From Escherichia coli (GTDB lineage Bacteria; Pseudomonadota; Gammaproteobacteria; Enterobacterales; Enterobacteriaceae): 9,349 nt of DNA. Positions 8,081 through 9,005 of this stretch are shown here, in pieces; position 1 is the stretch's first letter; each line of letters begins with the position of its first letter. The notes beneath the pieces were generated by a model. That model searched no databases and had not been told where the DNA came from. It saw only the letters and a list, made by a program, of their open reading frames with translations. The stretch lies in the NCBI RefSeq assembly GCF_003334315.1, contig NZ_QOWR01000090.1; one strand, given 5' to 3'. Made by a program: the position numbers and the translations under genes.

Positions 8081-8170
8081 GTGCTGGTTCTCAAATGTGC
8101 GCTAGCTATTGCGGCTGTAATGGCAATTTATTGTCTTGCTGTTGTTCTTATGGATCGCCTTTCTGATTGA
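8081..8170 (+). CDS. Candidate small hydrophobic membrane peptide (29 aa: MLVLKCALAIAAVMAIYCLAVVLMDRLSD); possible type I toxin-like or small regulatory membrane protein
   Basis: Consensus SD AGGAGG (8070-8075) 5 nt upstream of GTG 8081; single predicted TM segment with charged C-terminus; candidate -35 TTGAAT (8015-8020) and -10 CATATT (8038-8043). Below the length cut-off of the supplied ORF track. No homologue recognised. Confidence 0.4.
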   Translation: MLVLKCALAIAAVMAIYCLAVVLMDRLSD

Positions 8171-8177
8171 TTTTATA

Positions 8178-8206
8178 TTGGCGAGGTGACGGGAGTTAAG
8201 TAGAAT
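8178..8206 (+). promoter_or_regulatory. Putative hok promoter (-35 TTGGCG 8178-8183, 17-bp spacer, -10 TAGAAT 8201-8206), predicted transcript start near 8213
   Basis: Sigma70-like hexamers read from the sequence; predicted 5' end GGGTGCTTGAGG matches the conserved 5' end of hok-family mRNAs as recalled. Confidence 0.45.
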
Positions 8207-8269
8207 TGCTGCGGGTGCTTGAGGCTATCTGCCTCAGGCATGAACACCAAAGGCAGATAGAGAAAAGCC

Positions 8270-8333
8270 CCAGATAACATTACGCGTCCGGCAAGACGCT
8301 TAACATTAATCTGAGGCCAATTTCATGCTTTGC
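8270..8333 (-). ncRNA. sok: Sok-type antisense RNA (antitoxin) overlapping the mok translation-initiation region; boundaries approximate
   Basis: Position inferred from hok/sok architecture (Sok overlaps the mok start by a few nt and extends upstream); minus-strand candidate promoter -35 TTGCCT / 17 bp / -10 TAACCT (complement of 8340-8368) would start transcription near 8333. Confidence 0.5.
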
Positions 8334-8537
8334 ACATGTAGGTTAGCCTCTTACGCGCCGGAAGGCAAGGAGAAGCAGGCTATGAAGCAGCAAAAGGCGA
8401 TGTTAGTCGCACTGATTGTCATCTGTTTAACCGTCATAGTGACGGCACTGGTAACGAGGAAAGACCTCTGCGAGGTGCGAATCCGAACCGGTCAGACGGA
8501 GGTCGCTGTCTTCACAGCTTACGAACCTGAGGAGTAA
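8325..8537 (+). CDS. mok: mok (modulation of killing) reading frame, in-frame N-terminally extended form of hok
   Basis: 70-codon ORF starting ATG 8325 (GAGG 8312-8315 upstream) and sharing the hok stop, the same arrangement as chromosomal mok/hok pairs in E. coli. Confidence 0.6.
   Translation: MLCTCRLASYAPEGKEKQAMKQQKAMLVALIVICLTVIVTALVTRKDLCEVRIRTGQTEVAVFTAYEPEE
8382..8537 (+). CDS. hok: Hok/Gef-family type I toxin (small membrane-depolarising peptide)
   Basis: 51 aa MKQQKAMLVALIVICLTVIVTALVTRKDLCEVRIRTGQTEVAVFTAYEPEE; near-identical (from memory) to E. coli HokC/Gef and HokD/RelF. SD AAGGAG 8367-8372, ATG 8382. Confidence 0.9.
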   Translation: MKQQKAMLVALIVICLTVIVTALVTRKDLCEVRIRTGQTEVAVFTAYEPEE

Positions 8538-9005
8538 GAGTGACTAGGCGAGGGAGAAATCCCTCGCCGCCTCTGATGTGTCAGGCATCCTCAACGCACC
8601 CACACTTAACCTGATTCGGCGAGTTTATTTTATCTGTGAATATTTTTATAAAAATAATGCCCATACACAGCAAAAAACAAAAAGTATTACAGATAAAAAA
8701 GGAGCGTAATGTGCAGATTTGTTGTTTTCCATATTTACTCACCTTAATATGATTAATCCTGATAGGATTGTTATTTCAGCGGTTTTCAAATGAGATATTA
8801 TGGTGATCTGACAAATTTGCATAACATTAAAATTTAATTTGTTTAACCGCTTTTAATAATAAGCGTTGTTTGTATCCCAGCAATCTGTTGTTTGGTTTTT
8901 ATTCCATTAAGGTGGGGGCTTTACACTGGAACCAGTTTATTTATACTTTATACGTCAGCCTGAACAACTGGCATCTGCTGCACTGCGCCATCGAGAGATT
9001 GAGAA

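Follow-up and report, generated by a model that had tools for sequence, protein, structure and literature searches.

Architecture and family membership of the locus

The stretch of Escherichia coli DNA analysed here, 9,349 nucleotides (nt) of contig NZ_QOWR01000090.1 (assembly GCF_003334315.1) and called the window throughout, contains at positions 8170-8605 a 436-bp hok/mok/sok locus of the hokD/hokW type. All the defining parts of such a system are present, the list of parts being taken from the description of plasmid R1 hok/sok in PMC9841398. On the plus strand, the toxin gene hok extends from the ATG at 8382 to the TAA ending at 8537 and encodes 51 amino acids; its translation matches the Pfam family HOK_GEF (PF01848) over all 42 model positions (E = 2.1e-23) and PHROG 251, "MokW-like host killing", at 7e-33. 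The Shine–Dalgarno (SD) sequence of hok, AAGGAG at 8367-8372 (+), can be read directly and sits within the family-conserved block CAAGGAGAA. The listed open reading frame (ORF) of mok, 70 codons at 8325-8537 (+), overlaps hok in frame and continues to the hok stop codon, with the SD sequence GAGG at 8313-8316 (+), placed 8 nt before its start codon. Among 72 aligned relatives, 55 keep all 70 codons open, and going by R1 the frame would be the route by which hok is translated, through predicted coupling. Upstream of both genes, the candidate hok promoter at 8178-8206 (+) consists of a −35 box TTGGCG (8178-8183), a 17-nt spacer and a −10 box TAGAAT (8201-8206), together matching 9 of 12 consensus positions in a promoter scan, and ends 7 nt before 8213, from where it presumably drives transcription. 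The −10 box, the transcription start and the tac element share their alignment columns in every family member aligned (R1 hok, hokC, hokB and hokW). The full-length hok mRNA would thus span about 396 nt, 8213-8608 (+), its 5' end placed by homology, as the Rfam leader model begins at 8213, and its 3' end expected a few nucleotides past the fold-back inhibition element fbi, as in R1. Taken as a whole, the segment is very probably an intact toxin-antitoxin module of type I, belonging to the hokD/hokW subgroup. It lies among the early genes of a lambdoid prophage of Rac type, with the replication and ren-like genes and a cargo island to one side of it and the nin genes to the other.

Membership in the family is carried by homology at several levels. 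The Rfam profile RF01794 matches 8213-8387 from end to end with 116 bits (E = 1.5e-26), and E. coli CP53 carries the whole 436 bp with 100% identity, under the RefSeq annotation hokD. The subgroup follows from this identity together with 92.7% identity over 94% of the locus to the hokW-sokW copy of VT2-Sakai (Sakai prophage 5, Sp5), 94.5% identity to the part that K-12 hokD retains, and neighbouring genes of lambdoid prophage type; such Stx-phage copies are annotated as MokW or "gef homolog", and P1-like phage-plasmids carry the locus at about 87% identity. Of 5426 complete E. coli genomes, 4017 contain at least 80% of the locus, at a median of 2 and a maximum of 10 places each, and 57 records show at least 99% identity to the 436 bp, the identical sequence recurring in other genomes. 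The locus is therefore an already known system: its exact sequence is annotated, the family has been catalogued in a preprint with 44,248 homologues, and the 92.7%-identical relative has been dissected experimentally. With a textbook family, a RefSeq-annotated sequence and a functionally characterised relative, the discovery value is small; the value for annotation is greater, as genome records list the hok coding sequence alone, and mok, Sok and the regulatory boxes are here mapped to the base. The name HokD itself must stem from some rule other than the NCBIfam Hok models NF007279 and NF007290, which score 49 and 40 bits on 8382-8534, under their curated cut-offs of 73 and 89, though RefSeq calls the identical protein HokD.

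Two alignments were used. The first (A1) compared eight sequences, namely the window, Sp5 hokW, two more copies from phages or plasmids, three K-12 loci (hokB, hokC and hokD) and an R1-type hok; the second (A2), of 72 sequences, added 66 phage loci from IMG/VR. The R1 reference is an IncFII plasmid encoding a Hok protein 100% identical to that of R1, its leader differing in length from R1 by a few nucleotides; the R1 transcription start was anchored through the numbering G4/C5/T6 and A70/G71/C72 of PMC9841398, which matched in the IncFII sequence. In both alignments all parts stand in register with R1 hok/sok, K-12 hokC/sokC, hokB/sokB and Sp5 hokW/sokW. The original prediction, made from the letters of the window alone, had described a complete hok/mok/sok locus of a known family at 8170-8605, with a hok promoter at 8178-8206, a mok start at 8325 and hok at 8382-8537, and had proposed alignment to hokC/sokC and R1 hok/sok as a check. 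Every coordinate it gave agrees with the sequence: the independent consensus scan recovers the promoter, the ATG at 8325 opens a 70-amino-acid frame, hok is open and recognised by HOK_GEF, and the proposed alignment brings all elements into register with the reading frames open.

The Hok protein of the window differs from K-12 HokD by a single conservative substitution, I9V, present in nine other aligned loci, and the identical protein is found in seven phage loci; HokD and 42 of 45 tested homologues were toxic when overexpressed (preprint). Twelve rows of A2 (e.g., L018, L019 and L020 (426-826)) have lost 3 nt behind the ATG of mok and gained 1 nt (GGTCAAGG), which leaves a mok of only 19 codons whose TGA stop overlaps the hok ATG (ATGA). 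In that subgroup mok is a short leader ORF, presumably coupled to hok by termination and reinitiation, as opposed to the 70-codon in-frame extension.

The Sok antisense RNA and the folds of the hok mRNA

Homology places the putative promoter of the antisense RNA Sok on the minus strand at 8340-8368, with the −35 box TTGCCT at 8368-8363, a 17-nt spacer and the −10 box TAACCT at 8345-8340, in the same columns as TTGCGC-17-TATCCT of R1. The plus-strand reading of the −10 region, TAGGTTA at 8339-8345, is the very heptamer altered in the "pro-less" construct of sokW, in which the primers change TAGGTTA to CCGGCTC and antitoxin activity is lost (PMC8621323); the −35 box is likewise the same as in sokW. 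From this promoter a Sok RNA of about 75 nt, 8333 to about 8259 (−), is predicted, consisting of a single-stranded 5' tail, a long hairpin and then UUUUCUCU. Its start, placed at G8333, is 7 nt downstream of the −10 box and opposite nucleotide +9 of mok, an offset common to the annotated K-12 sokC (16952, mokC at 16960) and R1, and its 3' end would lie near 8259. Folded (−30.6 kcal/mol, z = −5.25), the predicted RNA is built like the annotated K-12 SokC and owes its greater length to an 18-21 nt insertion in the ucb/SD hairpin, which is also present in Sp5; for sokW, 71 nt of complementarity have been reported (PMC8621323).

Two apparent signals for an antisense RNA were set aside. A second minus-strand promoter-like pair, TTAACT-18-TAAAAT at 8199-8170, which the consensus scan did report, is oriented away from the locus and has no counterpart in relatives; we treat it as a chance occurrence. 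The Rfam match, in turn, carries the name "sok antitoxin", but what the model describes is the strand of the hok mRNA, with a consensus structure that is the open form of the hok leader (tac/ucb and SD/dcb). At a K-12 locus (L003) the RF01794 match at 902-1054 (−) is antisense to the annotated sokC at 953-1011 (+). The match was consequently rejected as evidence for the antisense RNA and supports the hok leader instead; automated annotation based on RF01794 would put "sok" on the wrong strand.

The elements by which the hok mRNA is expected to switch between folds are all legible on the plus strand. At its 5' end, 8213-8224 reads GGGTGCTTGAGG, the tac element (GGGUGCUUGAGG), whose partner is fbi in the full-length RNA and, after processing, would be ucb. 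Folding of 8213-8572 pairs 8215-8225 with the adjacent downstream segment 8231-8241, forming a metastable 5' hairpin of the kind described for R1 (PMC9841398). The anti-SD element ucb, AAGCCCC at 8265-8271, pairs with tac in folds of the 5' fragment, and dcb, GCCUC at 8346-8350, pairs with GAGGC at 8313-8317, giving the Sok-target hairpin of the processed mRNA. Beyond hok, a stem-loop at 8547-8568, GGCGAGGGA-GAAA-UCCCUCGCC, is the predicted protective end of the processed mRNA, a role established for its R1 counterpart by mutagenesis (PMC9841398), and 8589-8601 reads CCTCAACGCACCC, the fbi element (CCUCAACGCACCC), identified by its fold with tac and by the pair counts given below. The minimum free energy (MFE) fold of 8213-8605 reaches −162 kcal/mol (z = −7.4), a stability attained by 0 of 100 shuffled sequences, and joins tac to fbi by 6 bp, a bulged C8595 and a further 6 bp; the pairing of about 12 bp that had been anticipated from the letters, and the fold suggested for verifying it, thus came out as 12 bp with one bulge. 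In this closed form fbi holds tac, and ucb and the mok SD lie within a hairpin at 8267-8317. The open form, with tac/ucb and SD/dcb, is the MFE fold of 8213-8352 and agrees with the Rfam consensus structure.

Comparison across the family argues for the same pairings. Counted over 71 distinct sequences and controlled with column shuffles and slid alignments, the share of paired cells is 98.7% for the tac/fbi helix, 99.4% for the tac/ucb helix and 99.5% for the 3' hairpin, with five of the nine pairs of the last changed on both sides, while the columns of the SD/dcb pairs hold in 69-71 of the sequences. Compensatory changes in tac/fbi are seen in hokB (GGGUGCCUGAGA with UCUCAUGGCACCC) and R1 (GGCGCUU with AAGCGCC), the strands of the window being GGGUGC..UUGAGG and CCUCAA.GCACCC. 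The closed structure as a whole contains 13 pairs altered on both sides, compared with 4.5 ± 1.2 in column shuffles and 4-7 in the slid controls, and the open form 11, compared with 3.2 in controls.

What was computed here, namely the sequence elements with their conservation and covariation, the pairings in silico between which they alternate and the identity with a validated Sok promoter, suggests a course of regulation, for which we infer the transcript starts and ends, the 3' processing, the refolding, the mok-hok coupling, the cleavage by RNase III and the toxicity. The promoter at 8178-8206, of moderate strength, would by homology produce the hok mRNA of about 396 nt from 8213. In the full-length RNA, as computed, tac would be paired with fbi and ucb would bury the ribosome-binding site of mok, a state that, going by R1, should be neither translated nor bound by Sok. 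Slow trimming of the 3' end back to the hairpin at 8547-8568 would remove fbi and let tac pair with ucb, whereupon the mok SD would shift into the SD/dcb hairpin and translation of mok would drive that of the overlapping hok, both again by the example of R1. The short-lived Sok of about 75 nt, made on the minus strand from TTGCCT-17-TAACCT and starting near 8333, would pair over the mok start, block translation and trigger RNase III. Should Sok synthesis stop, whether by loss of the element or by prophage induction, the stable mRNA would be translated and the 51-residue membrane peptide would depolarise or kill the cell. The role of the system is most likely, by analogy, stabilisation of the prophage or island, help with lysis on induction as for hokW, or both; the Rac-type prophage carrying this copy is probably defective.

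A further layer of control may act on the protein. K-12 hokD mRNA has been reported to undergo A-to-I editing by TadA at exactly the Tyr47 codon, changing Tyr to Cys; the second Cys, according to the preprint, forms a disulfide required for full toxicity of HokB. In the Hok of the window Cys30 is hard-coded and Tyr47 is encoded by TAC within TACG at 8520-8523 (+), a probable editing site at A8521. The 21-nt context of this motif is identical in 68 of the 72 aligned loci, the window included, and the K-12 hokD row of A1 has the same sequence. Given the conserved context and the editing in K-12 hokD, editing at A8521 is likely by analogy, and the change of Tyr47 to Cys would probably tune toxicity.

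Integrity, variation and genomic setting

Relative to the functional hokW of Sp5, the window is unchanged in tac, ucb, the mok SD and ATG, dcb, the Sok hexamers and their spacing, the hok SD, fbi and the lengths of both ORFs. The earlier description of the locus as intact rather than decayed thus applies to all regulatory elements compared, but not to the intrinsic terminator that follows fbi. Of this a degenerate remnant is left at 8610-8632 (+), CCTGA-TTCG-GCGAG and then a T-rich run, with a hairpin of −0.4 kcal/mol as opposed to −11.8 kcal/mol for the consensus CCCGC-TTCG-GCGGG plus T-run, CCCGCTTCGGCGGG; among copies that share this downstream DNA, intermediate stages form a graded series, and the loss may permit read-through toward the nin genes. 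We considered the remnant as proof of decay and rejected the argument: the functional Sp5 hokW also lacks a hairpin after fbi, so the degenerate terminator of the window is no evidence of inactivation.

Several observations nevertheless weigh against an intact, working module. With its terminator degenerate, the window may differ from most relatives in how the 3' end of the mRNA is formed. A minus-strand Sok promoter had been predicted without coordinates, and although homology now supplies them (8368-8340, with a −10 box identical to a validated one), the consensus scan reported no minus-strand promoter at 8340-8368, where only 7 of 12 positions match. Similarly, the MFE fold of the presumed processed mRNA, 8213-8572, shows the metastable 5' hairpin in place of tac/ucb, such that the refolding step draws on analogy, the thermodynamic prediction alone being insufficient. 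Within the hokD group tac and fbi are near-invariant, and the covariation of their helix hence comes from two distant sequences, hokB and R1. Finally, the chromosomal hokA, hokB and hokC have been reported without post-segregational killing (PSK), and an intact sequence is no guarantee of that phenotype.

How far these points carry depends on the alternative considered. That the resemblance is superficial, a stand-alone small ORF with fortuitously complementary ends, could appeal to no more than the general point that chance alone can produce promoter hexamers and complementarities of 12 bp; we regard it as next to inconceivable, for the Rfam and Pfam matches (1.5e-26 and 2e-23), the synteny of all elements with four reference loci and the thousands of homologous copies refute it. 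Early decay, in which the lost terminator and allele-specific substitutions already impair formation of the mRNA 3' end or the balance of Sok and hok, seems to us improbable. The substitutions at issue are two in the Sok-promoter spacer, a GT insertion past the stop codon and I9V, and they add to the weakened terminator and its graded decay in copies of the same downstream context; the spacer sequence of the window is indeed unique among 76 sampled versions. Yet the spacer changes leave the hexamers and the 17-nt spacing untouched, the GT insertion is found also in L018 and I9V in nine other loci, the identical 436 bp recurs in other genomes among the 57 records of at least 99% identity, and Sp5 hokW, where the sequence of primer YO-561 matches, functions without any hairpin after fbi.

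Of more weight, if still rather unlikely in our judgement, is the reading of a locus whose sequence is intact but which stays physiologically silent, being transcribed but never activated and persisting as hitch-hiking prophage DNA. The reports, cited in the preprint, of hokA, hokB and hokC without PSK or activation by rifampicin are in line with such silence, as are the decayed terminator past fbi and a host prophage that looks defective, with an insertion of IS2 type in a NinB-like gene at 9273. Against it stands the strong constraint on the hok coding sequence and all regulatory boxes over 69 phage-borne copies, where nucleotide diversity (pi) is 0.012 in the hok coding sequence, 0.002 in tac and 0.006 in the block of the Sok −35 box and hok SD; moreover, the closest relative to have been characterised, hokW-sokW, is active, with effects on lysis and on the yield of phage, and its −10 and −35 boxes, SD sequences and ORFs are the same as those of the window. 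We therefore retain the intact hokD/hokW-type module as the preferred reading.

Against these near-invariant flanks, one segment stands out. At 8319-8338, the region of the mok start that is both the target of and the template for the 5' tail of Sok, pi reaches 0.33 among the 69 prophage loci of hokD type, about 27 times the value of the hok coding sequence, and 18 alleles are distinguished. Residues 2-6 of Mok vary freely with the segment, which argues that the sequence of the Mok peptide is unconstrained. The pattern would fit diversifying selection for orthogonal Sok/hok pairs, under which co-resident prophages could not silence each other's toxin; we put this forward tentatively, as an explanation with somewhat less than an even chance of being right. 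If it holds, the window carries one specificity allele, of the CTTTGC type, and the segment could become a test of antitoxin orthogonality among co-resident prophages. In both multicopy genomes sampled the intact co-resident copies carried different Sok-tail alleles, two genomes being too few for a conclusion. The hypervariable segment, the TACG editing motif and the degenerate terminator are all features on which the original prediction was silent.

Not all phage-borne copies are complete. The tac element and 5' end are unchanged in 69 of 75, and 7 of the 75 are without the region of promoter, tac, mok and sok (L030, L034 and L070; L025, L042 and L045; L017); among these seven, three share the junction of K-12 hokD and three have another upstream sequence. 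The opposite is seen at 270-600 of L016, where a complete locus is immediately preceded by a duplicated partial hok leader, which runs from tac through the Sok promoter, has another Sok-tail allele and is joined at CAAGG|GTGCGGGTGCTTGAGG; the duplicate could be an orphan extra sok gene.

The surroundings of the locus are those of a Rac-type prophage. In CP53 the order is racC, kilR, sieB and ydaF, replication genes, a DUF977/Ren-like gene, a five-gene cargo, hokD, a DUF1367/NinB-like gene and DUF1364, and the PHROG assignments of the window ORFs (a replication-initiator fragment, Ren-like and NinB-like proteins) agree with this context. The cargo, at 1405-7661 between the Ren-like gene and hok, is a non-phage block of five genes encoding a BCCT transporter, a DUF2254 protein, a LysR regulator, a gamma-glutamylcyclotransferase and an MFS transporter, and is split further by IS100, IS5 or ISKpn26 in other genomes. 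Immediately upstream of the hok promoter, a GTG-initiated ORF of 74 codons with 13 Cys lies at 7942-8166 (+); it has no match among Pfam-type, NCBIfam or PHROG models, carries no annotation in CP53 and is probably not a gene. Downstream, the NinB-like/DUF1367 gene at 9006-9272, uninterrupted in CP53, is broken after codon 89 by the left end of an IS2-type element at 9273-9349 (TAGACTGGCCCCCTGAATCTCCAGACA..., with a few mismatches to K-12 IS2A). The locus had been said to sit next to an IS2-like element and phage-like DNA; the IS2-type end is real and the context is phage, but the element begins some 670 bp further downstream and leaves the locus untouched.

Comparison with known hok/sok systems

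The closest characterised relative is hokW-sokW of Sakai prophage 5 (VT2-Sakai; PMC8621323), which is identical to the window in tac, ucb, the mok SD, dcb, fbi, the hok SD and the two Sok hexamers (−35 TTGCCT, −10 TAACCT) and shares with it the insertion of 18-21 nt in the loop of the ucb/SD hairpin, a 70-codon mok and a site in a lambdoid prophage. Takada et al. (2021) showed hokW-sokW to be a working type I system, with toxicity of Hok, protection that depends on the Sok promoter, and a partial dependence on RNase III and Hfq; on RecA-dependent induction sokW RNA disappears and HokW appears, and phage without hokW-sokW suffer a two-fold drop in yield (PMC8621323). The two copies diverge in the 5' tail of Sok and its target, where about 7 of the leading 21 nt are different (CTTTGC/AATTTC in the window, CTGAAC/CAATCC in Sp5), in the C-terminus of Hok (FTAYEPEE as opposed to FVDYESEK in HokW), in the sequence upstream of the −10 box and in the flanking genes, the window being a Rac-type prophage with a cargo island and Sp5 an Stx2 phage.

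K-12 hokD (relF) of the Qin prophage matches positions 8368-8605 of the window, the 3' 55% of the locus, with 94.5% identity and has the same fbi, 3' hairpin and TACG editing context and a Hok one residue apart (I9V). The match is confined to this part because relBE replaces everything upstream, and hok promoter, tac, ucb, mok start and Sok promoter are all absent; in contrast to the window, it keeps a strong terminator. The window is the complete ancestral form of what K-12 hokD retains as a torso, and shows that locus before relBE displaced its 5' half.

The chromosomal K-12 systems hokC/mokC/sokC (gef) and hokB/mokB/sokB have the same architecture at non-prophage sites, and SokC (59 nt) and SokB provide the register of the Sok 5' end and the build of its terminator, with a Sok hairpin 18 nt shorter than that of the window. 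Unlike the copy studied here, K-12 hokC is separated from its fbi by an IS186 insertion, and an IS150 disrupts hokA. The transcripts of R1 hok/sok (parB) are 398, 361 and 64 nt long. With about 55% nucleotide identity to the window, R1 has the same elements in the same order and spacing, from the −10 box, transcription start, tac, stem-loop, ucb, mok SD and mok ATG through dcb/Sok −10, Sok −35/hok SD, hok and the 3' hairpin to fbi, with the start of Sok opposite mok +9; HokW and R1 Hok are roughly 44% identical as proteins (PMC8621323). What sets R1 apart is that it is plasmid-borne and a proven post-segregational killer, with a longer first stem-loop and no insertion in the ucb/SD hairpin.

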